Below, piece after piece: positions 1,120 through 23,126 of a DNA stretch of 64,000 nucleotides. Each line of letters begins with the position of its first letter. Position 1 is the stretch's first letter. A program made the position numbers and the translations under genes. The notes beneath the pieces are model-generated. The model did no database searches. It saw only the letters and a program-made list of their open reading frames with translations, and was not told where the DNA came from. This DNA is from Terriglobia bacterium (GTDB lineage: Bacteria > Acidobacteriota > Terriglobia > Terriglobales > Acidobacteriaceae). The stretch covers positions 447,565 through 511,564 of the forward strand of contig CAWBGY010000005.1 of NCBI GenBank assembly GCA_963788505.1. Direction: 5' to 3'.

Positions 1120-3522
1120 TTACCGGACGTCCAGTGTGTAGTTGGTGCCTTCCCAGCGCTGTTCCTGCGGCCAATAAAACGTGAATACAATCTCACCTCC
1201 TGCCGCAAGCTGCTGGGTTGGCAGGTCCGCGACGAAGGTGCCCAAGGGGTCGCGGGTGTTCGTGTCCTGCACGCTCTGCCATCCATCAAGGCTCCAGTGC
1301 ACCACGGCGGGCGAGGACAGCAACAGGCGCAGCTTCTTTCCTTGCGGTATGGTCCGGCACTTGTTATTGAAGCGCCATTCGCAGTAGGCGGATTGCTTTC
1401 GTTCCACCTGATAGCGCTGGACGGTCTGCGGTGGCTGATCAAATATTTTGCCGTCGCGCAAGGACCGGCGCAGCTTGATGTATTCCGAGTGCGCCCATAC
1501 CAGAGGACACGCCGAACCGGACGGCTTTCCGCGAAACAATTCGAGGGCGGGAATGTCGGCCGCATCCCAGACTTGCTCGGGGATCAGGCGACCACCTTCG
1601 GTGGAGAATTCCATTACCTTGAGCAACGCCTCGGCGGCCTGGGGCCGCCCCGCCGCCAGTTCGTAATGCGCCCTTTCGCCGGCCAGCAAGGGCCACGCCC
1701 GTCCAATTCCGGTTCCATCAAAGGGCGAGCCATCATCGTGCTCGCCGTAGCCGTCGCCGTTGTAGCGGTACCAGCAAGGGCCCTGAGGCAGGTTCACCTT
1801 GAGCAGGGCATCGATCGCTTTCACCGTGTTCAGAATTCGTGGATCATCGGGCGCGCGCAAACCAAACCGCACCAGGGCAAGAGAGTCGGGGCTGATCAGG
1901 TGCTCGGCCCGTGATTCACTCTGCCCCGGCGGCCGGTTTTTGATAGGGACAAATCCCTGCAGCGGCGACGCCGCACAGTCCGAGTCCGGCGGCGCGATCC
2001 GCACATAGTAGCCTTCCACGCCGAGCTGCCGGGCCAGATCGCTATCCTGGGCGTAGGTCCAGCGTTCGATGTTGTCATTCCAGTAATCCGCGGTCTCACG
2101 CAGATGGGTCGCAATGTCCGCTTGCCCTACTGCATCGGCCAGGTCGGCGGCGGCCAGCAGTCCCGATATTTCCACGGCCAGGGTAAACGGCGAATAACCC
2201 GCGTCCTCCTCCCAGCGATCCTGCTGGGTCACCGGACCGTTGCGAAGAATGTATCCGGCAGCCCGACTGACCATCGTCCACCAGCGTTGCAGGTCTCCCA
2301 GAACAAACGGCGAGTGCCGCCGCAGCATGTCAACCAGGAGAATAGGGAATGCGGCTTCGTCCATCTGCATTCCGTCCCAGTAGGGACGCCCATCGAGCCA
2401 CATGTTCTGCGCCCAATTTCCAGGCGCCTCCTGGGTGACTTCGAGATAGCGCAGGACGCGCAACGCGTCGGGTTCGGCTCCCGCCGCCAGGAAACCAAAC
2501 GCAGTTTCCACCAGGTCCCGGGGCCAGACCAGATGGTATCCGCCGAGATCTTCGTCGCCTTTGTTAAATCCCCAGGGAATGGAAAGACTGGCGATTACGC
2601 CTCCCAGAAAATCCTTGGACTCGTGCGAGCGCAGCACCGCCACACTGGGGCGATACAGGTCAAGCTCACGGCGGGGCTCGTCCAGTTTCAAAAGGGTGTC
2701 CTGCCAATTTTTCCAGTGCCAGACGTAGTGCTGGCGCAGTTCGTCGCAGGACTCCAGCAAAGTGGAGCGCGCCTCTTGTCCGGCCTCGGACCAGATGCCG
2801 CCGAAGCCCAGCGCCATGGTGAACTCCCCGTTGCAGGCGGCCAGGTCGATCTCGCCGGTGAGTGCTATATTTCCGTTTTCCGCATGAGTGTAGTCCCAGG
2901 TCAACTGGTAATGCTGCGAAAGGTCCTGCCACCCGTCGGAGAACCCGGCGAACCCCACCGACATTTTCCGCCAGGGAACCGAGCAGGCAAAGGCCAGGGC
3001 GACCCCGTTGCGGTGGGCGAACAGGGTGGGCATGCCTTTGTAGTCTCCGATCCAGCCGGTATTCTCCCGTCCGCAATTCGCCAGATGGGGCGCCAGCAGC
3101 GCGTATAGACGATAGTCGGCAAGCGTGCCTTCGAGCGGTACGAAGCGCACCCTCTGCAGCACCACATTGCGGTAGGGATCGGAAAAGACTTCCTTCTCGA
3201 TCCGGTAGCGGCCTTGCAATTCGGTATTCGTCAGTTTGTAAACCGGAACACCGGGCTGGATGGGATGGCTTTCAAACTTGCAGTGGCGTTTTTCTTCGGA
3301 GAAATAGCCGGAACCGTCGGTGACAATCAGCCCCTGGTCCCGGGTGCAAGCCTGGTCGACTCGCGGGTAGTAAACTTCGTTCAGGATGCCGTGGCTCAGC
3401 GTGAACCATACCCGGCTGTGCAGGTTGAGCGCGGTGCCAATGCCGGTTTTGGCGCTCGAAGTCCAGCGCGGCGAAATTCCCGGCCAGCCCGGAGCGTAGC
3501 GTTCAGCTTCGTTCTCACCCAC
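1120..3522 (-). CDS. Glycoside hydrolase family 15 glucoamylase / glucodextranase-like enzyme
   Basis: Intact 800-aa ORF. N-terminal YAPGWPGISPRWTSSAKTGIGTA...LNEVYYPRVD and catalytic-domain motifs (GGYHLVWPRDL, QDRWEE) typical of bacterial GH15. GTG start with GAGGA upstream. Confidence 0.85.
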   Translation of the reverse strand: MGENEAERYAPGWPGISPRWTSSAKTGIGTALNLHSRVWFTLSHGILNEVYYPRVDQACTRDQGLIVTDGSGYFSEEKRHCKFESHPIQPGVPVYKLTNTELQGRYRIEKEVFSDPYRNVVLQRVRFVPLEGTLADYRLYALLAPHLANCGRENTGWIGDYKGMPTLFAHRNGVALAFACSVPWRKMSVGFAGFSDGWQDLSQHYQLTWDYTHAENGNIALTGEIDLAACNGEFTMALGFGGIWSEAGQEARSTLLESCDELRQHYVWHWKNWQDTLLKLDEPRRELDLYRPSVAVLRSHESKDFLGGVIASLSIPWGFNKGDEDLGGYHLVWPRDLVETAFGFLAAGAEPDALRVLRYLEVTQEAPGNWAQNMWLDGRPYWDGMQMDEAAFPILLVDMLRRHSPFVLGDLQRWWTMVSRAAGYILRNGPVTQQDRWEEDAGYSPFTLAVEISGLLAAADLADAVGQADIATHLRETADYWNDNIERWTYAQDSDLARQLGVEGYYVRIAPPDSDCAASPLQGFVPIKNRPPGQSESRAEHLISPDSLALVRFGLRAPDDPRILNTVKAIDALLKVNLPQGPCWYRYNGDGYGEHDDGSPFDGTGIGRAWPLLAGERAHYELAAGRPQAAEALLKVMEFSTEGGRLIPEQVWDAADIPALELFRGKPSGSACPLVWAHSEYIKLRRSLRDGKIFDQPPQTVQRYQVERKQSAYCEWRFNNKCRTIPQGKKLRLLLSSPAVVHWSLDGWQSVQDTNTRDPLGTFVADLPTQQLAAGGEIVFTFYWPQEQRWEGTNYTLDVR

Positions 3523-6917: not shown

Positions 6918-8124
6918 ATGAAGGGCAAGAAAGCCGGATCCAGCGGGCGAACTGCTGACCTGACCATGGCGGAGAGAACCGGAGTCGAACAAATCGTCGA
7001 GAAAGTGGTGTCCCAGGTTCTGGACAACCACGTCCCGCAGTTGCGGGAGGAGTTGGTGCGCCGGGTGCTGGAGGAACTTCCGCCCGCGACGGATGCGGCG
7101 CCCGCGGAAGTGTCGGGAACAGGTGGATCGGCGAATCTGCTGAAAGCGATTGCGACCATCCAGTCGGGCACGACGCAGCGCGAGATTTTGCGCGCTCTGC
7201 TGGACAACACGGTGCGCTACAGCGGGCGCGGAGCGCTCTTCGTGGTCAAAGCGGGCGCGGCCACGGGTTGGCAGGGACGCGGCTTTACCAAGGACGGCGA
7301 CGACACGATTAAGGATTTTGCCCTCAACGTGACGACGGGTGTGCCGGAGCAGGCCCTGCGGTCGCGGATGCCATTCCAGGGCGCTACGGCTGATATCGAT
7401 CCGGAGTTTATTGCGCGATTCGGCGCTCCGGCCGATGATCAGGTGCTAGTGCTCCCCCTGTTGCTGAAGGAAAAGGTGGCGGCGCTGGTGTATGCCGACG
7501 CAGGCGTGGATGGAGGCGGAAAGATGGACGCCGCCGCGGTGGAGTTGCTGGTGCTTGCGACCAGCGCGTGGCTGGAAGTAGCGTCGCTGCGCAAGCAGGC
7601 GCAGAAAGAAGAATCCGCCGAGGCGGCGGGTCGAGAAAACGGACAGCGCACCGCCGGCGCATGCCGCGTCCGCCCATTCGGATCCTTTTGCGGCGCATGC
7701 GCCCAAGCACATTGAAACCGTTCCCGAGCCGGTTCCGGCCCCGCCGGCTGAAGTGGAGCAGCCAGTCGCAGTGGCCCAGGCCGAGCCGGTGGTTACATCG
7801 GCGGCGGCGGCACCCGCTCCCGCGACCGATGCCTTTGCCAACCTCTCGCCCGAGGACGCTGACGTTCATCGCAAGGCGCACCGCTTTGCCCGCCTGCTGG
7901 TGGATGAGATCAAGCTGTACAACCAGGTGAAAGTCACCGAGGGACGCAAGAGCAAGGATTTGTACGACCGGCTCAAGGAAGACATCGAGAAGAGCCGGGC
8001 AACTTACCAGAAACGATACGGCAACACGGCGGCCGGCGGAGCCGATTACTTCAGCCAGGAGCTGGTTCGCAGCCTGGCCGAAGACGACACTTCCATCATG
8101 GGCGCCAATTTTCGGCGAAATTAA
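6918..8124 (+). CDS. Hypothetical protein with GAF-like middle region and conserved basic/helical C-terminus; frame broken once
   Basis: ORF 6918..7715 (frame 0) and ORF 7753..8124 (frame 1; open from 7582) join naturally (..QKEESAEAAG / VEKTDSAPPAHAAS..PVPAPPAEVEQP..) if one base is removed near 7624-7640. Confidence 0.6.
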
Positions 8125-8129
8125 TCAGA

Positions 8130-10656
8130 GTGGTTCTTCATCGTTGGCTATCGGTCTTGATTGGAATTTCTTTGATCGCGGCCGTCTTGTGCGCCGATCC
8201 GCCTCTCTTCGCTTTGCCTGCCGCGGCACAATCCTCGGCCCCGAAAACCCAGCATCCGCGGAAAAGGAAGCGCAAGGCCGCGGTTCGGCACCGCAGCCAT
8301 CCATCGCCCCGCTCGCGCCGCATGCACGCGGCCTTCGTCGCCTCCACGAGTCTGAAGCCAATGGCGCGGCAACTGCTGCAGGACCGCACGCCCGCCGCTT
8401 ACGCGGGAGTAGAGGCCTACGCGCGGCGTCACACCCAGGAAGATGCGGGCGCGCTGGCCTGGCTGGTGCTGGGATATGCGCACGTTCTCGATAAGGACTA
8501 CGCCAAAGCCGTCGATCCACTCAATCGCGCCAAACCCCTGGCTGGAGATCTGGGCGATTACGTCAGCTTTTATCTGGGCACTGCCTATCTCCAAAGCGGG
8601 AGGACGGCGGAAGCTGTCAGCACTTTGAGCGCATTCGAGAAGCAATATCCGGACTCGTTGCTGCTGCGCGATGCGCGGGTTTTGTATGGCAACGCGCTGC
8701 TGGCAGACAACCGGTCGAAGGAGGCGATTGCCGTACTGGAGCAGGATCGGCAGCCACCGCAAGCCGATCTGGAGTTGGCCCTGGGACAAGCCTACGCCGC
8801 CAGCGGGCAGCCGGTTAAGGCGGCTGAGATCCTGCGCAACTTGTACATCACCATGCCGTTGAGTCCGGAGGCCGGCCAGGCTGATATCGAACTGAAAAAG
8901 TTGGCGTCGACCACCCAGTTGCCTCCCCTGGGGTTGGAGGGACACAGAACGCGCGCCGATCTCCTGGCCAAGGGCAGGCGATTCAGCGACGCCGCGGACG
9001 AGTATCGGGACCTGCTCAGCGTGGTAAGTCCGAACGATCGTCCAGAACTCCAACTGGCGCTGGCCGTGGCGTTGCGCCGCTCCGGCCAGGACAAGGAAGC
9101 CAAGAAGGTCCTGGAAACACTGGACAGCTCGAACCCTGAAATCAACACGCAGCGACTTTACAACCTGGGTGAGGTAGCTCGCGACGACGGCGACGAGCCC
9201 GGCTTCTTGCAATACCTGGCAGAACTGCGTCAGGCCGCTCCCACCAGCTTTTGGCTGCAACAGGCGTTGCTGTCGGCGGGCAACTACTACCTGCTCAAAC
9301 CCGACTACGACAAGGCGATCGATGCTTATCGCGAGCTGCAGTCAGCGTTTTCCAAATGCCGGCCGGGCCTCTTACGCGCATTGGAAAGTGGCCTGGCTGA
9401 GCCTGCGCCAGGGCAGGACGGCCGAAGCCAAGACTGGATTCGAGCAGCAGATCGGCCTGTACCCCACGTCGGCAGAGGTCCCCGCGGCCCTCTACTGGCG
9501 GGCACGCCTGGCCGAGGAAGACAAAGATCCCGGCATGGCGCGCGCGTACTATCAGAAGCTTTCAGAGCGCTTCCGCAATTTCTACTATGGCGAACTGGCG
9601 CGGCGCCGTCTGCGAGAAATCAAGGCGGACGGCGATCCCCCTCACTACGCTCTGCTGGATCGGGTTCCCGCCATGAGTGACGGGACCAGTGTGACGATCA
9701 CTGATCCGCCAACCGACAACTTGCGTTATCAGAAGGCCCAGGTGCTGGAGAACGGCGCTCTGGTGGACTTTGCGGTGCGCGAATTGCAAGCCGCCGGTAC
9801 CGAAGATAAGGGCAACTGGGTGGCGGCCGAGACCGCAAAACTCTACGAGGACGCGGGACGCTATGACGGAGCCATCCGGGTATTCAAACGCGCCGTGCCC
9901 AACTATTTTGCCGTGGATTTGCCCACCCTGCCGCGCCCCTACTGGGAGGCCCTGTTTCCCAAGCCATACTGGCCCGACCTGAAGAAGTTCTCCTCGCAGA
10001 ATGCCCTCGATCCCTATCTGGTGGCGTCCCTGATACGGCAGGAGTCGGAGTTCAATCCCGAGTGCTGTATCGCGGGCCAATGCACTGGGGCTGATGCAAC
10101 TGCTGCCCAAGGTGGGCAGCGCGGTCGCGAAGCAGGAGAAGCTCAGGCATTTTTCCTCCGGCGCAATTGTTTACTCCTGAAGTGAACCTGCAGCTGGGCA
10201 CCCGCTATTTCCGCGAGATGGTGGACAAGTTTGGCACCTTCGAATACGCGCTGGCGGCCTACAACGCCGGTACGAACCGTGTGGACTGACTGGCTGGGAC
10301 AGGGGAAATATCGCGATCCGCAGGAATTTGTGGAGTCCATCCCGTTTACCGAGACCCGGGAATATGTGCAGGCCATTCTACGGAATGCCAACGTGTACCG
10401 GCAGTTGTACGGGACGCCCGATAGGTCGCCGCGCGCGAATCCACCTGTGTCGTTTTACTGTACTAGTGGCACAGGAGATGCAGTGAAGCAAGGTCCCTCT
10501 CATTGGATTGCAATGCCGGAGCGCTTGCGGCTGTTACGTCTTTTTACAATCTTTTCTTGTTCCTCACAGCAGGCGAGGACTAAGATGTCGGTCTGCGCGA
10601 GTAGATTAACTTTCTACTCCAGCCAAAGTCCAAATACGAAGGAGACAGTCTCATGA
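8130..10656 (+). CDS. Soluble lytic murein transglycosylase (Slt70-like, TPR/superhelical N-domain + GH23 domain); frame broken four times, 3' end uncertain
   Basis: Signal peptide, then long helical repeat region, then LIRQESEFNPE|AVSRANALGLMQLLPKVGSAV...|AQLFTPEVNLQLGTRYFREMVDKFGTFEYALAAYNAGTNRVD|DWLGQGKYRD. The catalytic ES motif and GLMQL/AYNAG motifs are present. Single extra bases near 9348-9351, 10062-10064, 10158-10162 and 10287. Confidence 0.75.
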
Positions 10657-11829: not shown

Positions 11830-14697
11830 TTACCCGCCGATCTCCTTTAACACGGCGCTGCAGCGCTCGCACACCGTGGGATAGACGGCGTCCTCGCCCA
11901 CGTGGGTCGAGTAATTCCAGCAGCGTTCGCACTTCTTGCCCGCGGCCTTGCTCACCTGGACGCTGACTCCGCTGGTGCCGTTTCCTGACTTGCCCGGCTG
12001 CAGAGTGACCGCCGACACGATAAACAGATAGCGGAGCCGGTCCTGGTAGCGCGCCAGGACGGAGAACACGGGCTCGGCGGCCGTCACCGTGACCTGTGCC
12101 TCCAGATTGGCGCCGCCGATCAGCTTGCTCTGCCGGGCCTCTTCCAGGGCCTTCAGTACTTCGGTGCGGACACGCCAGCAGTGTGGTCCAATCCTCGCGC
12201 TGTTTGGGATCATCCGCGGGAATGGCACCGCCCAGGATGTCAGATGCGCTGGGGAAGTTGGCCAGATGCACACTGGCGGGACGGTCAGGCAGCGCGGGCA
12301 GGTACTGCCACACTTCGTCGCAGGTGAAGCTGGTGATGGGCGCAAGCAGACGGACCAGGGCCTCGCCGATGTGCCAGATGGCCGTCTGCGCCGCCCGGCG
12401 GGCGCGCGAGTTCGGCGCGTAGGTGTAAAGCCGGTCCTTCAATACGTCGAAGTAGAAGGCGCTCAACTCCACGACGCAGAAGTCATTGATCCGATGATAG
12501 ATCTTGTGAAACGCGAACTCGTCGTACCAACGGGTCACATCCGCCGCCATGGCCACGGTCTGGCGCAGCATGTACTGATCGAGAATGTCCATCTCATCGA
12601 ACGGAACCGCGTGCTGCTGCGGATCAAAATCGTAGAGATTGCTCAGGACATAACGAAACAGACTGTTGCGAATCTTGCGGTAGCTTTCGGCCACGCGCTG
12701 CATCACTGGCTCGGAGCCAACCACGTCCTCGCGAAAATCGACCGAGGCGACCCAGAGACGAACGATCTCGCCGCCCAGGCGGCTGGCGATGTCGACGGGA
12801 TCGACGTCGTTGCCGCGAGACTTCGACATGGCCTGCCCCTTCTCGTCGAGCGTCCAGCCCGGGGTGACGACTCCGTGGTAGGGCGGACTGCCGCGCGTGC
12901 CCATGGCGCAGAGCAGGGAAGACTGAAACCATCCGCGGTACTGGTCGCCGCCTTCGAGATAAAGATCAGAAGGCCAGGGATATCCGGGTTCATCGTCGAG
13001 CAGGGCCAGATAGCTGGTGCCGGACTCCAGCCAGACATCGAAAATGTCGGTTTCCCGCTCAAAGCTTGTTCCACTGCAGTGCGGGCACTGTGGTGCCGGC
13101 GGGGAGCATCGTGTCGGCCTCGGGCGTGTACCACGCGTCGGCGCCGGAACGTGCGAAAAGCTCGGCCACCTTGGCATTGATGGCGGGGTCGTTCAGCGGC
13201 TTGCCGCAGCTTTTGCACAGGAAAACGGCGATGGGCACGCCCCAGACGCGCTGCCGCGAGATGCACCAGTCGGGCCGGGTCGCGATCATGTTGTGCATGC
13301 GCTCCTTGCCCCAGGCTGGGTCCCACTTCACCTTCTCGACGTCTTCGAGGGTACCGGCTGCGCAGGGTGCCGCCGCCCGGCATGGCCGCTTCCATCGAGA
13401 TGAACCACTGTTCGGTGGCGCGAAAGATGATGGGATTATGGCAGCGCCAGCAATGCGGATAGGAATGCACGAGCTTTTCCGTGTGCAGCAGCGCACCGCG
13501 TTTCTTGAGCAGCTCGATGATGGGCGCATTGGCATCCCAAACCTTCAACCCGTCGTACTCGGGAAGGCCGTTGCGCAGGATGCCTTTTTCATCCACGTTG
13601 CTGGTGGCGTCGAGTCCGTACTTCACGCCGGTGGCGAAGTCTTCCGCGCCGTGCGAGGGCGCGGTGTGAACCACGCCGGTGCCGGTGTCCATGGTGACGT
13701 AGTCGGCCAGCACGCCGAGGATTTTGCGATCGAGAAAGGGATGCTGAAAGTTGAGGCGCTCCATCTTGCTCCCGGAGAAGCGTGCCAGTTCCTTCGCGTC
13801 TTGAAGGTTGCATTTCTCGGCCACATCGGCAGCCAGCCTGGCCGCCACGATGTAAGACCTCGCCCGCGGATTCAAGCGCAACGTACTCTTCGTGGGGATG
13901 GAACGCCACCGCCATCGACGCCGGCAGTGTCCAGGGAGTGGTGGTCCAGATGATGGTCGAGACTTTCTTGCCGGTAAGAGCCGGATCAATCTTGGCCGGA
14001 TCGTCAAGCAGCGCGTACTTTACCCAGACGGTTTGGCGTGGTGTCATTCTCGTATTCAACTTCGGCCTCGGCCAGCGCCGTCTCGTCGTGCATGCACCAA
14101 TACACGGCGCGCAGACCCTTGTAGACGAAATTGTTCTCGTAAAAGCTGTAAAACGTCTTCAGCACCACGGACTCGTACTGCGGGGTCATGGTGTAATAGG
14201 GCCGGTCAAAACGCCCGAAGACGCCAATGCGCTTGAACTGCTCGCGCTGCAGATCGAGAAACTTCTGGGCAAACTTGCGGCACTCCCGGCGCACATCAAG
14301 CGGTCGCATCTGCAGCTTCTTGCCGCCCAGCATCTGGTCGACCTTGATCTCGATGGGCAGGCCGTGGCAGTCCCATCCCGGGACATAGGGAGCGTCAAAT
14401 CCGGCCATAGTCTTGGATTTGACCACGAAATCCTTCAGACACTTGTTGAGCGCCGTACCCAGATGGATGGGTCCGCTGGTGTAGGGCGGGCCATCGTGGA
14501 GGACATAGAGCTTTGCCCCGCGCCGCGCCTCGCGAATACGCTCGTAGATTCCCATCTGCTCCCACCGGGCCAGGGCCTTGGGCTCGTTCTGGGGCAGGTT
14601 GGCCTTCATGGGGAAAGTCGGTCTTAGGCAGATTGATGGTGGATTTCAGCTCCAGCGGCACGCGGTTGTTTTCTCCCAAATGGTTGATTTTTTTCAT
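11830..14697 (-). CDS. ileS: Isoleucine--tRNA ligase, reading frame broken six times in the sequence as given
   Basis: Six collinear ORF pieces: [29 protein letters not shown] | [36 protein letters not shown] | [20 protein letters not shown] | [32 protein letters not shown] | [40 protein letters not shown] | [31 protein letters not shown] | [23 protein letters not shown]-like and KMSKS motifs are present. Junctions near 14610-14613, 14032-14034, 13855, 13350-13356, 13088-13092 and 12171-12174. Confidence 0.9.
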
Positions 14698-17997: not shown

Positions 17998-19224
17998 TTA
18001 CTTGAAGCGCGAGGCTTGGACGCGTTCTTGTCCTTGCGCTGCCAGGTTGCGTTCACAGCAGGGCCCGGGGGGAATGGGTGCGCCGTGCGGGCAGGTGCGG
18101 GGATGGCCGAGGAAGCTGCAGATCTTGTCGGTCGCTTCGGGCGAGAGAATATGCTCGAACTTGCAGGCCTGCTGTTCGATCTCTGATTCGCTGTCCAGGG
18201 CCAGGCTGTCGGTGAAGAGGCGTTCGGCCAGGCGATGGCGGCGGATGATGTCGGCGGCGCGCAAACGGCCGCGGGGAGTGAATTCCACGATCATGCTGCC
18301 GTCGCCGGTGGAGACGCCCGCAGGCTTGAGCGCATCGTGGCAGGGGTTCACGAAGGGCTTGTGATTGTGCGTTTCCGGCGGATGGGGCTTCGTAGTGAGC
18401 AGGCCCAGGGCCGTCATCTTCTCGACCGCGATGCTGACCGGCAACGCGCCGTGAACTTCCATACGCTCGATTTCAGCAATTTCTCCGTGCTCCTCGACCG
18501 CCCATAGTTCTTCGAGGACTTCGTCGAACTGCTCTTCGTCGGCCATGGCGAAAACTTCCTGATCGGCAATCTTGCCGTGGTGCAGTTCGATGCGGCGGTC
18601 CGCCAGTCGGGCGACGACGGGATCGTGTGTCACCATGACGATGGTGCGTCCCTGGCGGTGCAGTTCGCGCAGCAGGCGCAGGACAATCTCTTCGTTGACC
18701 GCGTCCAGATTGCCGGTGGGCTCGTCGGCCAGAACGATCTTGGGATCGTTGATCAGGGCGCGCGCGATGCAGACCCGCTGCTGCTCCCCGCCGGAAAGGT
18801 GGGCAGGCAGATGCCCGGCGCGGTCCTTCAATCCCACATGGGCCAGGGCCGCCAGCGCTTCCTGCTCATCGGTCATGCTGTGAAAGTACTGGGCCAGCAT
18901 GACGTTTTCGAGCGCGGTGAGGTACGGGATCAGGTGGAATTGCTGGAAGATGAGACCGACCTTTTCGGCGCGAGCGCGGTTCAAGTCCTGGGCGGAAATC
19001 CGGGCGACGTCTTCGCCGTCGAGCCAGATTTCGCCTGACGTGGGGCGATCCAGGCATCCGATCAGGTTGACCAGGGAGGACTTGCCGGAACCGGACGGGC
19101 CCATGATGGCGAGCCACTCGCCAGGTGCAACCTCGAGAGACACGTCATCCAGCGCACGGATAACGCCGCCATTGGTCTCGGCCCGGGCTGGGTAAAGGCG
19201 GCTGACATGTTTGAGCTTGATCAT
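17998..19224 (-). CDS. ABC transporter ATP-binding protein (LolD/MacB type) fused to a C-terminal DtxR/IdeR-like metal-sensor module
   Basis: Walker [10 protein letters not shown], signature LSGGEQQRV, Walker [14 protein letters not shown]-loop VTHD (aa 1-225). Then [12 protein letters not shown]...[60 protein letters not shown] (aa ~228-386). ATG 19224 lies 1 nt after the upstream permease stop. Confidence 0.85.
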
Positions 19225-19225
19225 G

Positions 19226-20377
19226 TCATTCTCCCCTGAGGATGGTAGCAGGTTGAACCCGCCCGAGCAGAGATATCGGCAGGACGGCGGCGATGAGAGC
19301 GATGACGATCCCGCCCAGCAGAACAACCGGCAACACGCTCAGGCGCGGAGTGACCGGGGCGTGAAAATTGACCCGGCCAATCCAGATCGCCACTCCCACT
19401 CCGACGGCAAAGCCTATGGCCGCGCCGATCCCGCCCAGAATGGCGGCTTCGGCGGCGAAGAAGCCTTGCAACATCCTCCCGGATGCGCCCAGGGCCTTCA
19501 TGAGGGCAAAGTCGCGGCGGCGATCGGAGACCCAGCCGGTCAACGTAGAGAGCACACACATTGCGGCGGTGAGAATGATGAGAATGGATGCTACGAGAAG
19601 CGTAGAGCGCATCCTGCCCAATACATTGGCCTCGCCCTCGGTAACCTGGCGTACGGCGTGGACGTCAGCCACGGGAAGGACCTGCCCGAGGCGTTGGATG
19701 ACGGTGCTCACCTCTTCGGTCGAGCCTGAAGCCGAGATCTCAACCGTCGAATACGGGACGTGGGTCCACTCGGTAAAGTCGGCGAGCGATATGTAGATAC
19801 GACTGTCTTCGGCTGCGCCGGTCTGCAGGGTGCCGGCCGGATTGAGCCGAATGGTGCGCCCCTGAAAACTGAGGTCGAAGGGCGTTCCCGGTGAACCGGC
19901 CACGCTAACGGCGCGCGTGCCCACCAGGGCATCGCGGGAAGCTTTTGGCCAACCTGTCACGGACCACCAGCTGCCGTCCAACTTTTGGACTTGTTCGATA
20001 TCCGTCCCGGCAACGACGACCGAATGACCATTAGCGGTGCGGGCGACGGCGTAGGCGAAAGGGACGGCGATGCCCCCGCTGCCCAAGACTGACCGGACCG
20101 TCGCCAGGGTATGGTCCGGCAGGCTCTGGCCGTCGCGGGCAACTACCACGATGTTGGCGCCGTACTTGCGAAACTCCCGGCGCAGCTTGGCCTGAACGTC
20201 GACGTAGAGATTGAGCATGGCGGTGGCCACGGCGGCAGCCACCAGCATGGCTAGCAGCGCAGAGGCGGCCCGCCCCCGCCGCAGAACAGCCGCACGCACC
20301 AGCATGCGCAGGAACATCGAAGTATGGGGCGCGGCCGTCCGGCGGCGGGCGACGTGGCCCGCGTCTGGCGGGATCAT
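19226..20377 (-). CDS. ABC transporter permease, MacB/FtsX type (4 TM, large periplasmic domain)
   Basis: N-terminal TM, ~220-aa extracytoplasmic region, C-terminal FtsX-like 3-TM bundle (DRRRDFALMKALGASGRML). ATGA overlap with the upstream permease gene. Confidence 0.8.
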   Translation of the reverse strand: MIPPDAGHVARRRTAAPHTSMFLRMLVRAAVLRRGRAASALLAMLVAAAVATAMLNLYVDVQAKLRREFRKYGANIVVVARDGQSLPDHTLATVRSVLGSGGIAVPFAYAVARTANGHSVVVAGTDIEQVQKLDGSWWSVTGWPKASRDALVGTRAVSVAGSPGTPFDLSFQGRTIRLNPAGTLQTGAAEDSRIYISLADFTEWTHVPYSTVEISASGSTEEVSTVIQRLGQVLPVADVHAVRQVTEGEANVLGRMRSTLLVASILIILTAAMCVLSTLTGWVSDRRRDFALMKALGASGRMLQGFFAAEAAILGGIGAAIGFAVGVGVAIWIGRVNFHAPVTPRLSVLPVVLLGGIVIALIAAVLPISLLGRVQPATILRGE

Positions 20378-21627
20378 GCATCACCTCGCAGCGCGTACAC
20401 CGGATCAAACTTCACCGCCCGCCGGATGGCTGCAGCACTCCCGGCAAAAGTTACGAGCACGGCAATGGTCAGAATGATGGGCAAGAGCACCGGCTGGATG
20501 GTGATCTGCGAATCGAAAATAGATTGTCCGATCTGACGCGCCAGGAGCGCGCCCCCAACGAAGCCCACGCCTCCGGCCAGCAAGGCCAGCAGCGTAGCTT
20601 CGGCAAAAAACAAGACCGCCACCGCCAGGTTACCCGCGCCTAAAGCTTTCATTAAGCCCACCTCGCTGCGTCGATCCACCACCGCGGTCGCCATCGAAGC
20701 GGAAACCGCCAGAGCGGAGGCCAGCAAGGCGGCCAGGGTAATCAGTAGCATCAGCCCCTGGATGCGGGAAAGTACAGTGCCTTCATTCTGCGCCACCTGG
20801 CGAATCTGTTCCGCGTGGGAGTGGGGAATCGCCTCCTGCAACTGGAATGCGATGGACTGCGCGTAAGGAGAGCAGTACCAGCGGTCGTACATCTCAGGCG
20901 ACATGCTTTTGGGATCGCGGCGGGCGAAAGCATCTTCGGGCTTGGTCACGGCGCTGACGTAGATGCGACGCACCGCGCCGGGCTTGCCGAGAATCTGCTG
21001 GGCCAGGGAAAGAGGCGCGACGATCTGATCATCCTCCGGCCCGCCGGTGGAAAGAATGCCCGCAATCCGGCGTGGGTGACCGTCGATTTCAATTTCCTGG
21101 CCAGGCGTCCGCTCAAGTCTTGCTGCGACGTGATCACCCAGCAGGACGTCCTCCGAGTTATCGTCCGGCCATGCCCCCTGTACTTTCCACCAGGGATGGG
21201 TGGTGCGAACGCCGGTGACGAAATCCTGTTTTCCAAATACAACGTTCCGGGCAAAGTATGTTCCCAGCAGCGTGAGGTTTCCCGCACTGGTCGTAACATT
21301 GACCGGCAGCATGGGGGCGAAACCCACGATGTTGTTGCGCCAGAACATACCTCTGATTCTGGGCAGATCAGCTTCGTTCAGGTATGCCCCGTCACTGGGT
21401 GGCTTCAGGTTCACGCCCCCAATCTCGAGATCCAGCGTGTCTTCCTGGGGTGTGACGATGAGGTTGGCGCCGTAAGTACGCAACTCGCGGCTGATCTTGT
21501 CGCCGATATCAGTGGCAACCGCGATCATGGCCGTGGCTACGCCCACGCCCAGCATGATGGCAACTCCGGCCAGCAGTTTGCGGCGCTTCTGCCGCCGGAA
21601 GGACTCATAAAGTAGGCGTAGGAACAT
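20374..21627 (-). CDS. ABC transporter permease, MacB/FtsX type (4 TM, large periplasmic domain)
   Basis: MFLRLLYESFRRQKRRKLLAGVAIMLGV..., periplasmic domain, FtsX-like C-terminus (DRRSEVGLMKALGAGN). 3-nt gap to the upstream FTR1 gene. Confidence 0.8.
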   Translation of the reverse strand: MFLRLLYESFRRQKRRKLLAGVAIMLGVGVATAMIAVATDIGDKISRELRTYGANLIVTPQEDTLDLEIGGVNLKPPSDGAYLNEADLPRIRGMFWRNNIVGFAPMLPVNVTTSAGNLTLLGTYFARNVVFGKQDFVTGVRTTHPWWKVQGAWPDDNSEDVLLGDHVAARLERTPGQEIEIDGHPRRIAGILSTGGPEDDQIVAPLSLAQQILGKPGAVRRIYVSAVTKPEDAFARRDPKSMSPEMYDRWYCSPYAQSIAFQLQEAIPHSHAEQIRQVAQNEGTVLSRIQGLMLLITLAALLASALAVSASMATAVVDRRSEVGLMKALGAGNLAVAVLFFAEATLLALLAGGVGFVGGALLARQIGQSIFDSQITIQPVLLPIILTIAVLVTFAGSAAAIRRAVKFDPVYALRGDA

Positions 21628-21630
21628 GGG

Positions 21631-22878
21631 TCAGGGTTTGAAAATATGAGCACCGGCCGCGACGTCGGCCTCGCGGATGATGACCGCATCCGCGGTCTGT
21701 TCGGCGCGCAGGGGAATCGGGTTGCAGCCGCCGGTCATGCCGACGGACTGCGCATTGATCGGCGCCGCGCAGTTCTTGCAGATGACCCCGTTCGGTCCTT
21801 TGTAGAAACCAACGGGGCCGCAAATCTGGCAAGCATCGAACACAGTGGCAATTTTGCCGTCCGGCTTCTTGTACAGCCAGAAACGGACCTCCGTACCATT
21901 TTCCCTGGCTGAAAAGCGATGAAGGTCGCCGTCCGCCACCTGCGTGATCGGAATGCTCACCTGTCCGTCATGAAAAGTCACTGCAGTCGCGGGCGACAGG
22001 GAACTCACGCTCTTGGCGTAGATGAATTCTGCCGTGACCATGAGGATGAACAAGAACGAACTGGCATAGACGGAAACCATCCACAGGCGTTCGCGACGGG
22101 CGCTCCACTGCGCCTTGCGCCGCTCGGCGGGAGAGTCGGGAAGGACAACTGGCTGGCGGCGTTTGACCTCGAGCAGCACCATCAAGGCCGCCAATGCGAC
22201 GATGGTCACAAAAAAGAACAGGTCATTGCGCACGATGGGACCGACCAGAGCCATCTCCCTGCGTGAGGAGGGAAGGACTCCGTTTTCAGAAAGCTCATGG
22301 AGTCCGGAGATAATTAACTGGGCCGCCACAAAAAACAGAATGGCGGTGGTGACCCGAAAGAACTTCTGCAGATTGACGCGGACGCTGCCCTTAACGAACA
22401 TCACTCCAAACACAATGGCCACGATCACGCCGGACAGTGTGCCCAGAAAGCTGAGCAGTTCGGTAGAGTTCAGCGACACCGCTCCCAGGATAAGGACGGT
22501 TTCCACGCCCTCGCGCAGGACCATGAGAAAGACAAACAGAAACAAGCCGAACCGGGCATTGTGGCCGGCCAGCAGGCCGACTTTGCCTTCGATCTGTCCC
22601 TTGAGGGCGCGGCCCGTCTTCATCATGAAAACGATCATGGTGATGACGAAGAAGGCGGCGACCAGCATGATCCAGCCTTCGAAAATGTCCTGATTCCACT
22701 GGGTGCGCGACAGCAGAATCGCGATCCCGATGCTGCCCAGAAATGCGGCGATCAGAGCGGTGAAAACAGACTTGCGCAACTCGGGCCGGCCGATCTTCGT
22801 GAGATAGGCCAGGGTAATGCCGACGATAAGCGCGGCTTCGACCCCTTCGCGCAAGGTAACGATGAATGCCTGCAGCAT
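21631..22878 (-). CDS. FTR1/EfeU-type iron permease fused to a C-terminal Cys-rich DUF2318/FtrD-like domain
   Basis: Two REGVE motifs (TLREGVEAAL, VLREGVETVL) in a 7-TM region. Then an extra TM and FDACQICGPVGFYKGPNGVICKNCAAPINAQSVGMTGGCNPIPL. ATG 22878 (MLQAFIVTLREG) is preferred over GTG 22896. Confidence 0.8.
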   Translation of the reverse strand: MLQAFIVTLREGVEAALIVGITLAYLTKIGRPELRKSVFTALIAAFLGSIGIAILLSRTQWNQDIFEGWIMLVAAFFVITMIVFMMKTGRALKGQIEGKVGLLAGHNARFGLFLFVFLMVLREGVETVLILGAVSLNSTELLSFLGTLSGVIVAIVFGVMFVKGSVRVNLQKFFRVTTAILFFVAAQLIISGLHELSENGVLPSSRREMALVGPIVRNDLFFFVTIVALAALMVLLEVKRRQPVVLPDSPAERRKAQWSARRERLWMVSVYASSFLFILMVTAEFIYAKSVSSLSPATAVTFHDGQVSIPITQVADGDLHRFSARENGTEVRFWLYKKPDGKIATVFDACQICGPVGFYKGPNGVICKNCAAPINAQSVGMTGGCNPIPLRAEQTADAVIIREADVAAGAHIFKP

Positions 22879-22897: not shown

Positions 22898-22916
22898 ATT
22901 GCAACTCAGTTGCAAT
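22898..22916. promoter_or_regulatory. Perfect 19-bp palindrome (8-3-8) in the leader of the iron-permease operon; candidate operator or 5'-UTR hairpin
   Basis: ATTGCAAC-TCA-GTTGCAAT, 20 nt upstream of ATG 22878, directly upstream of the GAGG RBS and downstream of the candidate promoter. Confidence 0.4.
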
Positions 22917-22941: not shown

Positions 22942-22971
22942 AGAATAGTCTCCCCCTGGTGCAAGCGTCAA
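22942..22971 (-). promoter_or_regulatory. Candidate sigma70-type promoter of the iron-permease operon
   Basis: Minus strand: TTGACG-18 nt-TATTCT. Confidence 0.3.
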
Positions 22972-23004: not shown

Positions 23005-23126
23005 CCTTCGCGACCTTTGCGGTGCCCTTTGCGTCCTTTGCGGTTAAGAATTTTGCGTGATTTGCAGCAGGATCAAACCCTCTAACCGCAAAGGGCGCAA
23101 AGGGGACCGCAAAGGTCGCAAAGAAG
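23005..23126. repeat. CGCAAAG/CTTTGCG hairpin element (family R1), copy 3
   Basis: gcgaCCTTTGCGGtgcCCTTTGCGtcCTTTGCGGTTAAG - 34-nt loop - TAACCGCAAAGggCGCAAAGgggaCCGCAAAGgtCGCAAAGaagg. Confidence 0.8.

Follow-up and report, generated by a model that had tools for sequence, protein, structure and literature searches.

The last gene of an FTR1-linked operon in the 64-kb stretch of soil acidobacterial DNA analysed here (the window) encodes an ABC ATPase that carries a metalloregulator module as its C-terminal tail. The protein consists of a nucleotide-binding domain (NBD) of the MacB/LolD/FtsE type (aa 1-220) and, behind it, a DtxR/IdeR module of two domains (aa ~228-390). From conserved sequence features, and by analogy with regulated importers, we infer that the tail, formerly a DNA-binding switch, now senses cytoplasmic Fe(II) and feedback-inhibits the ATPase (the FetD equivalent) of an FTR1-linked MacB/FtsX machine. 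This is the best-supported mechanism among those considered, and a probability of about 0.55 was assigned to it.

An ABC ATPase fused to a DtxR-like module

The fused gene spans 17998..19224 on the minus strand (408 aa and a stop codon), and its ATG at 19224 lies 1 base past the stop of the upstream permease gene. The region 18067-18543 corresponds to aa 228-386 of the protein, and its translation equals the text quoted in the first-pass annotation.

The NBD (18565..19224, minus strand) was assigned from Pfam, NCBIfam and PDB matches and belongs to the MacB/LolD/FtsE/MJ0796 type with all catalytic motifs intact. ABC_tran was matched at aa 25-170 (Pfam, 9.3e-37, far over the gathering score), and Walker A (GPSGSGKS), the Q-loop (Q94), the LSGGEQQR signature, Walker B with its Glu (E168) and the H-loop (H200) were read from the sequence. 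The best PDB matches were MJ0796, MacB and LolD, with E values of 1e-58 to 1e-50. The best NCBIfam matches, MacB, LolD and FtsE, all fell below the equivalog cut-offs; therefore the ATPase is no orthologue of any of them. These matches place the ABC system in the MacB/FtsX type (type VII) and not among the classical importers.

In the tail, Fe_dep_repr_C (PF02742) was matched at aa 316-385 (9.1e-26; 90 bits against a cut-off of 27, far over the gathering score), while the winged helix-turn-helix (wHTH) model PF01325 was unmatched at E<0.01 in the N-terminal half. With the single sequence in phmmer, only the dimerisation domain aligned, to IdeR/DtxR in the PDB at 1e-15. A tail profile of 24 sequences aligned with IdeR/DtxR residues 11-135 in the PDB, covering both the wHTH and the dimerisation domain (E=1e-24), and its wHTH part aligned with IdeR residues 11-64. 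The full-length AlphaFold2 model was poor (pLDDT 67.8, pTM 0.47; NBD helical subdomain <50) and a tail-only model was used instead (pLDDT 87, pTM 0.78). In this model the helices follow the DtxR order and the wing has two strands, and the top 40 Foldseek matches in the PDB were all IdeR/DtxR (TM 0.78 on two-domain chains, rmsd 2.7 A). Structure prediction of the tail, suggested as a check in the first-pass annotation, thus recovered the DtxR/IdeR fold. Pfam, the profile and the tail-only model agree on the architecture proposed there, a complete NBD and, after it, a DtxR unit whose wHTH is degenerate and whose wing contains an insertion.

Profile alignment, AlphaFold2 and Foldseek define a short linker plus degenerate winged-helix domain at aa 221-325 (18250..18564, minus strand), equivalent to DtxR domain 1. 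The tail begins at about aa 221, directly behind the NBD, and the short linker is predicted to be continuous with helix 1. Helices at 222-245 and 263-272 and strands at 276-280 and 311-315 were modelled. Helix 2 is about 4 residues shorter than in DtxR, the residue at the position of DtxR Gln43 is Ile, and aa 227-280 hold 3 Lys/Arg as against 7 in DtxR 1-56. As judged from the sequence and the model, the wHTH fold is present and its DNA-contact features are eroded. The metal-binding and dimerisation domain follows at aa 326-390 (18055..18249, minus strand; PF02742, the PDB matches to IdeR/DtxR and residue invariance). The protein ends with a variable C-terminal helix at aa 391-408 (18001..18054, minus strand), delimited by AlphaFold2 (predicted helix 388-406) and by orthologue identity. 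A third, SH3-like/FeoA domain is missing, as no FeoA match was found with Pfam and the protein ends 18 residues past the CC motif. This domain is present in DtxR, IdeR and SloR and absent in MntR.

Conservation of the metal ligands and the wing insertion

The tail has the two-domain fold (wHTH plus metal-binding/dimerisation domain) in common with DtxR/IdeR and MtsR/SloR/ScaR (PDB 1DDN, 1U8R, 7B1V, 5CVI, 3HRS). In phmmer and profile alignments to the PDB, H330, E334, C354, E357 and H358 were equivalent to DtxR H79, E83, C102, E105 and H106, and E350 replaced H98, as the first-pass annotation had read by eye. The DtxR numbering is that of a DtxR query whose tblastn match, to 18070-18288, is in agreement with the PDB alignments. 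The primary ligands of DtxR (C102/E105/H106) and the ancillary H79/E83 are thus retained, while M10 is replaced by Glu or His and, in the Terriglobales clade, H98 by Glu. The M10- and H98-equivalent positions co-vary by clade, being Glu/Glu in Terriglobales and mostly His/His elsewhere, and are always occupied by potential ligands.

A second set of ligands was recognised by profile alignment. H330/E334/C378/H380 occupy the positions of His76/Glu80/Cys123/His125, which form the Mn-sensing site in MtsR/SloR (PMC9253540); a CPHG motif supplies the equivalents of Cys123 and His125. Loss of the ligands among orthologues, which the first-pass annotation had named as evidence against its proposal, was not seen: H330, E334, C354, E357, H358, C369, H374, C378, H380, C389 and C390 do not vary across 79 sequences and are kept in 63-66/66 of a wider set. 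Four outlying fusions (P0132, P0136, P0148, P0242) retain only part of the primary-site ligands and keep E334/C378/H380. C369, H374, C389 and C390 are four further invariant residues, and the CC pair is missing from DtxR/IdeR.

The ~30-aa wing insertion noted earlier is real. It occupies aa 283-312 (18289..18378, minus strand; family alignment), falls between strands 276-280 and 311-315 and is His/Cys-rich. It is confined to the Terriglobales clade, with no counterpart (a gap) in 46/66 family members. H281, H286, C295 and H296 are kept in 76/76 insertion-bearing sequences and H288 in 75/76; in both the full-length and the tail-only AlphaFold2 models the insertion has low pLDDT. DtxR/IdeR differ from the tail in being free soluble proteins and not placed behind an ABC ATPase, in having SH3 ligands, and in lacking the 30-aa insertion, the shortened helix 2 and the 4 extra invariant Cys/His (C369, H374, C389, C390).

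Distribution of the fusion

The fusion is no assembly artefact, since it is a single intact ORF in ~75 other Terriglobales genomes at the species level. A scan of one genome per species gave 440 confirmed fusion matches, to which thousands of metagenome proteins are added. With the full-length query against representatives, two-NBD proteins dominated after the first dozen matches and 7 distant fusions were recovered. Distant subfamilies of 339-401 aa occur in Acidoferrum, Acidoferrales, Polarisedimenticolia and unplaced contigs, and the linker of the 401-aa subfamily reads HGPSHPLNCPLxxTxDCC. Mean pairwise identity among orthologues is 77-89% in the tail (77% in the wHTH) and 84% in the NBD, and ~20% over the last 18 residues. 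Being this abundant in soil Acidobacteriota, the fusion is ecologically relevant beyond a one-genome curiosity.

The first homologues (180-330 aa, some on long contigs) had suggested stand-alone DtxR-like genes and split ATPases; reading of the DNA traced these to truncation by contig ends or to frameshifts in error-prone long-read assemblies (L001, L002). The exact ATPase-DtxR protein is present in public collections within a generically named 571-member 90% cluster, and database entries give it no name more specific than 'putative ABC transport system ATP-binding protein' or 'ATP-binding cassette domain-containing protein'. The first-pass annotation did not recall the architecture as described. 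Searches of the open-access literature likewise returned no published account, an absence that is no proof of novelty.

Operon context

The operon lies on the minus strand, with the gene order FTR1 + FtrD-like/DUF2318 fusion, FtsX permease 1, FtsX permease 2 and ATPase-DtxR last. The first gene (21631..22878, 415 aa) encodes an iron permease of the FTR1/EfeU type with a Cys-rich FtrD-like (DUF2318) domain fused to it (Pfam FTR1 2.8e-37, FtrD-like 8.9e-30; NCBIfam EfeU 5.7e-44); its start, the ATG at 22878, was picked by comparison with homologues. Two REGVE motifs and a CxxC-x13-CxxC-x14-C motif were read from its translation. Permease 1 (20374..21627, 417 aa), with a MacB periplasmic core and FtsX (Pfam MacB_PCD 6.4e-15, FtsX 1.2e-14), begins 3 nt beyond the FTR1 stop. 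Permease 2 (19226..20377, 383 aa), of the FtsX type (Pfam FtsX 2.9e-16, weak MacB_PCD), overlaps permease 1 by 4 nt, and the two adjacent permease genes are translationally coupled. All fusions examined reside in one operon type, FTR1+FtrD-like / FtsX / (FtsX) / ATPase-DtxR. The genes flanking the operon are SprT-like and DUF4440/DUF3471 (Pfam). Upstream, a consensus scan predicted a promoter-like site, TTGACG-18 nt-TATTCT (22942..22971, minus strand), and a -10-like TATYCT is kept at the equivalent place in related loci.

In gene content the operon is a compact relative of the Campylobacter jejuni fetMP-fetABCDEF cluster (cj1658-1665), with which it has in common FTR1, DUF2318, two FtsX-type permeases and one ATPase in an iron-regulated operon. 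The Cys motif of DUF2318 in Fet clusters (PMC6083913) is identical to the motif found here. FTR1 and DUF2318 are separate proteins in C. jejuni and fused into one protein here. The C. jejuni cluster also has P19 and thioredoxin genes, whereas P19 (FetP) and thioredoxin (FetE/F) genes were found neither beside the present operon nor in L001 or L002. FetD, compared by description only, has no C-terminal extension in published descriptions, in contrast to the DtxR tail of the ATPase here. With MacB, LolCDE and FtsEX the system has in common the NBD type and permeases with FtsX and a MacB periplasmic core, but its partner is an iron permease. We know of no metal-sensor domain on the ATPase of any of these three systems.

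A proposed cytoplasmic feedback sensor on the ATPase

Trans-inhibition by C-terminal regulatory domains on ABC NBDs is established for MetN, ModC and MalK. The C2 domain of MetN, the TOBE-type domains of ModC and MalK, and FbpC resemble the tail in being ligand-binding, dimerising domains directly behind the NBD of a transporter of the sensed nutrient, for which feedback by the cytoplasmic substrate is expected; for the tail such feedback is a prediction. The regulatory domains of those proteins are of the ACT or TOBE fold, whereas the tail has that of a DtxR metalloregulator. The trans-inhibited systems are type I/II importers that pass substrate via their ABC permeases; the host here is MacB/FtsX (type VII), and the metal would cross via the separate FTR1 permease. 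In a system of the MacB/FtsX type, the target of any trans-inhibition by the substrate would thus be a mechanotransducer coupled to the FTR1 permease.

In the proposed mechanism, the tails of the two ATPase copies of a transporter would pair below the NBDs in the way that DtxR dimerises. Rising cytoplasmic Fe(II), possibly Mn(II), would then fill two sites in the tail. Site 1, of the DtxR primary type, would comprise D234/E235 of helix 1 with C354, E357 and H358; site 2, of the MtsR/SloR type, would comprise H330, E334, C378 and H380, perhaps completed by C389/C390. The metal may lock domain 1 against domain 2, as it does in DtxR. Helix 1 of domain 1 appears to run on from the last NBD strand, so that the change could be relayed to the NBDs, where it would hinder ATP-driven closure and shut off iron uptake, as in the trans-inhibition of MetNI or ModBC. 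That the tail binds metal, which metal this is, that the tails dimerise and that the ATPase is inhibited are thus all predictions of this mechanism. The homologous FetBCD is needed for growth of C. jejuni under iron limitation (PMC10783030). Inhibition, as opposed to activation, by the tail is a guess, because the role of the FtsX-type ABC part in FTR1/Fet clusters is itself unknown (PMC6083913, PMC10783030). The fusion offers a handle on that role in FTR1/FetMP clusters, the activity of the FtsX-type ABC part being evidently worth coupling to cytoplasmic metal status.

Control of bacterial iron uptake is thought to be almost wholly transcriptional (Fur, DtxR/IdeR), with small RNAs in addition. 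If the feedback-sensor reading holds, a DtxR-type sensor in a transporter ATPase would act on iron entry as a rapid post-translational brake, and would be the first known case of a metalloregulator fold used as the allosteric domain of a transporter in place of a DNA-binding switch.

Other possible functions of the tail

The tail could instead be an iron acceptor or chaperone, a Cys/His-rich module that captures Fe(II) leaving FTR1 and hands it on, with the ATPase cycle possibly driving release. The many invariant ligands, the clade-specific His/Cys-rich extras (the wing insertion in Terriglobales, the HGPSHPLNCPLxxTxDCC linker in the 401-aa subfamily) and the strict association with FTR1 are consistent with this role. 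However, the operon encodes no metal-receiving partner, a rigid connection to the NBD and a hinge between two domains better suit a switch, and DtxR modules are, to our knowledge, known only as allosteric sensors; an acceptor role is therefore rather improbable.

To the same degree improbable is a structural clamp, in which the dimerisation domain only joins the two ATPase subunits and the metal (e.g. Zn) is structural and constitutive, with no regulation. PF02742 is a dimerisation domain, C369/H374/C389/C390 resemble a possible structural Zn site, and dimerising C-terminal extensions are known on ABC NBDs. Such a clamp leaves unexplained a complete wHTH and both sets of regulatory ligands at NBD-like conservation, as well as the exclusive association with an iron permease.

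At 77% conservation, the wHTH domain could have a DNA or protein partner. Beyond feedback inhibition, the tail might couple the state of the transporter to transcription, an addition that we consider doubtful and less probable than either of the two roles above. It could do so by sequestering a free DtxR-family regulator (as a heterodimer via the dimerisation domain common to both, much as in MalK-MalT signalling), by metal-loaded DNA binding, or via an internally initiated 182-aa DtxR-like protein. The possible internal start, Met227, does not vary within the Terriglobales clade; at most loci it follows AGGAAG, and several gene callers choose it as the start. By any of these routes the protein would be a bifunctional 'trigger transporter' for iron.

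The five invariant Cys (C354, C369, C378, C389, C390), including the CC pair missing from DtxR/IdeR, might also ligate an iron-sulfur cluster or be linked by reversible disulfides; the tail would then report Fe-S or redox status and not free Fe(II). The FtrD-like domain of the partner is Cys-rich too, and Fet systems have been proposed to include redox steps (PMC6083913, PMC10783030). The tail has no known Fe-S motif, and C354 and C378 each match a documented mononuclear-site position, in DtxR and MtsR/SloR respectively, which makes a sensor of this kind very unlikely.

The probable operator palindrome and its regulator

A perfect 9-1-9 palindrome, ATTGCAACT-N-AGTTGCAAT (22898..22916, no strand assigned; arms 100% complementary), lies downstream of the promoter-like site, ahead of the start codon of FTR1, and is the sole match in the window. 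Its position is kept in 69 loci, with two sequence types, type A (TTGAAATTGAAATTCATTTTCAA) and type B (GTTGCAAC-N3-GTTGCAAT). The layout is 7-1-7, resembling Fur-family boxes.

The first-pass annotation had suggested that the ATPase could double as the repressor of its own operon through this palindrome, with the metal-loaded DtxR tail, tethered to the membrane, binding the DNA. The wHTH fold is retained and conserved, and the perfect 19-bp palindrome has a length typical of DtxR operators and the expected place in the gap from promoter to start codon. No Fur or second DtxR gene was found in the 64-kb window by tblastn. When the window and 1.2 Mb of related loci were scanned with position weights, no further operator copies were found, which would allow a dedicated regulator; the scan is uninformative on a global versus a dedicated regulator because these loci all sample one neighbourhood.

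The putative recognition helix (helix 3) of the tail is identical at type A and type B loci, with no covariation with the operator, and subfamilies with quite different helices carry type-B-like operators. A related operon (L085) opens with a fur gene that has a similar palindrome upstream of it, and another (L086) opens with a complete stand-alone, three-domain DtxR gene. Because the recognition helix is the same across differing operators, and because related operons open with their own Fur or DtxR, a repressor role for the tail is unlikely. Repression by the tethered ATPase is the least probable of all the readings, given also the Fur-like layout of the operator, the short helix 2 (by ~4 residues), the 30-aa wing insertion, Ile for Gln43, 3 basic residues as against 7, the unmatched PF01325 model, and the fusion of the tail to a membrane-complex ATPase, unlike a free dimeric repressor. 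The palindrome probably serves a separate regulator as its operator, and a Fur-family protein is the likeliest candidate.

Results

Four close-packed minus-strand genes in the window constitute one operon. The first encodes a fusion of an FTR1/EfeU-type iron permease with an FtrD-like (DUF2318) Cys-rich domain (22878-21631; Pfam, 2.8e-37 and 8.9e-30). It is followed by two FtsX-type ABC permeases, one with a clear MacB periplasmic core domain (21627-20374) and a second (20377-19226), and by the 408-aa ATPase (19224-17998). The genes overlap or are separated by stop-to-start gaps of 1-3 nt, and their translation is therefore probably coupled. The first gene has on its 5′ side a promoter-like site at 22971-22942 (minus strand; TTGACG-18-TATTCT) and a perfect 9-1-9 palindrome (22898-22916). 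While FetM and FetA of C. jejuni are separate proteins, FTR1 and the DUF2318/FtrD-like domain are a single polypeptide in the window and at all related loci. No P19 or thioredoxin genes adjoin the FTR1 gene (21631-22878). Between the SprT-like gene and the operon promoter is a large inverted repeat (23006-23123; 41-nt arms, 93% complementary, 36-nt loop) made of repeated CCTTTGCG units and resembling either a REP- or MITE-like element or a strong terminator.

The ATPase combines the hallmarks of a type VII ABC ATPase with those of the DtxR metal-binding domain. As the first-pass annotation had proposed, a complete nucleotide-binding domain (NBD) precedes the tail: ABC_tran was matched at aa 25-170 (Pfam, 9.3e-37), all catalytic motifs are present, and the nearest relatives belong to the type VII mechanotransmission group (MacB, LolD, FtsE and MJ0796). 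Fe_dep_repr_C was matched at aa 316-385 (9.1e-26). The segment annotated as DtxR-like (18067-18543) translates to aa 228-386, in agreement with the text quoted for it. The Pfam wHTH model did not match the tail, and a single-sequence PDB search matched IdeR/DtxR over the dimerisation domain only (1e-15). A profile of 24 tails covered both domains (IdeR/DtxR residues 11-135, 1e-24). The AlphaFold2 model of the tail alone is confident (pLDDT 87, pTM 0.78), with helix 1 (222-245), a vestigial helix 2, helix 3 (263-272), helices 4-6 and a wing of two strands (276-280 and 311-315); the full-length model was poor. All of the top 40 PDB matches to the tail model are IdeR or DtxR (TM 0.78 on two-domain chains, rmsd 2.7 Å), bearing out the fold assignment. 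The reported wing insertion is also real; it comprises 30 aa (283-312) and is specific to the Terriglobales clade.

The first homologue search returned matches of just 180-330 aa, raising doubt about the fusion. At the DNA level these short matches proved to be contig-end truncations or frameshifts in noisy long-read assemblies, and they were discarded as evidence against it. In a set with one genome for each GTDB species, a relative is encoded by 440 stretches; 80 of these loci were fetched, all from Terriglobales/Acidobacteriota MAGs, and in almost every one Walker A and the tail lie in one ORF of ~408-416 aa. The same operon occurs at every locus examined. A profile search recovered full-length fusions in three size classes, ~408 aa (Terriglobales), ~401 aa (Candidatus Acidoferrum) and ~360 aa (Acidoferrales, Polarisedimenticolia), along with further, more distant ones of 339-356 aa. 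Public collections already contain the exact window protein under a generic name. In the ~401-aa class (e.g. P0124, P0270; 7001-8206 in the related locus L084) a Cys/His-rich linker between NBD and tail, FDTALHGPSHPLNCPLVNTGDCC, takes the place of the wing insertion, so two clades have gained distinct extra His/Cys segments, each at its own position. A small GBBH-like_N (DUF971) gene lies directly 3′ of the fusion gene in the 361-aa and 401-aa subfamilies (8095-8490 in the related locus L083, 8222-8614 in L084) and is missing there in the window.

The window and the related locus L001 are probably both from long-read assemblies with indel errors. Their DNA is 98% identical, with 62 gap openings over 16.6 kb. 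The isoleucyl-tRNA synthetase gene (11833-14697, minus strand) is intact in L001 (953 aa) and is broken in the window by at least five frame changes relative to it; for the FtsX and ATPase genes the reverse holds, with frameshifts in L001 and intact frames in the window. Short or split ORFs elsewhere in the window should therefore be read with caution.

The conserved ligand residues of the tail mark predicted metal sites, assigned by alignment. D234, H330, E334, C354, E357, H358, C369, H374, C378, H380, C389 and C390 are invariant in 79 aligned sequences, the ligands named in the annotation among them, and are kept in 63-66 of 66 sequences of a broader set. The ligand equivalences listed earlier hold in alignments to IdeR/DtxR. 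The DtxR primary site (M10, C102, E105, H106) corresponds to D234/E235, C354, E357 and H358. At the M10 and H98 positions Terriglobales have Glu/Glu, and the other subfamilies mostly have His/His. H330, E334, C378 and H380 correspond, through profile-alignment end coordinates, to His76/Glu80/Cys123/His125, the Mn-sensing site of MtsR and SloR (PMC9253540). Within the family the tail is conserved like the NBD (mean pairwise identity 77-89% versus 84%), and the last 18 residues are not (20%). Some primary-site ligands are missing from four outlying fusions, in which E334, C378 and H380 are kept.

The tail probably does not bind DNA. Its helix 2 is ~4 residues shorter than that of DtxR, an insertion interrupts the wing, Ile occupies the Gln43 position, and the domain core has 3 basic residues versus 7 in DtxR. 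The upstream palindrome is conserved in position and occurs in two sequence types, TTGAAATTGAAATTCATTTTCAA at 39 loci and GTTGCAAC-N3-GTTGCAAT at 30, the window included. Its 7-1-7 layout is that of Fur-family boxes. The putative recognition helix is identical for both types, and type-B-like operators (the second type) also occur in subfamilies with unrelated recognition helices. At the related locus L085 a fur gene (2566-3039) comes first in the operon and has a similar palindrome 5′ of it. At L086 it starts with a complete stand-alone three-domain DtxR (2607-3293; wHTH, PF02742, FeoA) with a CPHG motif, and the operator is different. This DtxR and the window tail share 47% identity across the dimerisation domain, which makes genes of its kind candidate ancestors of the tail. 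Control of transcription thus passes from one regulator to another between lineages while the tail persists, which argues for a different function of the tail.

Discussion

Feedback inhibition by cytoplasmic substrate is a feature of ABC NBDs that bear a ligand-binding, dimerising domain at the C terminus (MetNI, ModBC, MalK). In DtxR, metal bound in the primary site anchors helix 1 of domain 1 on domain 2 and changes how the domains are oriented. For the ATPase and its tail, all statements on function are what we infer. The linker is short and, in the AlphaFold2 predictions, tail helix 1 is continuous with the last NBD strand; metal would make the tail dimer rigid, and through this continuity the change would be passed on to the NBDs. 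Fe(II) loading would then inhibit NBD closure and so halt the ABC machine in its support of iron uptake through FTR1. The wHTH fold would serve as a lever arm, explaining its retention without DNA-binding features. The homologous FetBCD of C. jejuni is required for growth under iron limitation (PMC6083913, PMC10783030).

Alternatively, the tail may accept or chaperone iron, act as a structural clamp only, or sense Fe-S or redox status. Least favoured is a tethered repressor: the suggestion that the ATPase represses its operon through the 22898-22916 palindrome is made unlikely by the shared recognition helix and by the fur and DtxR genes that lead the operon elsewhere.

The proposed metal-responsive mode would resemble that of trans-inhibited ABC importers, with regulatory fold and transporter type both different. 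The tail differs from the DtxR family in having neither an SH3/FeoA domain nor a free-repressor lifestyle; functionally, therefore, the protein does not count as a DtxR-family regulator. No description of an ABC ATPase with a DtxR tail was found in the literature searched.

Met227, at the tail start (18544-18567, minus strand, covers codons 220-227), is invariant in the Terriglobales clade. Gene callers often begin a 182-aa protein there, and AGGAAG lies 8 nt 5′ of it in most loci, not all; a free DtxR-like protein made by internal initiation is conceivable.
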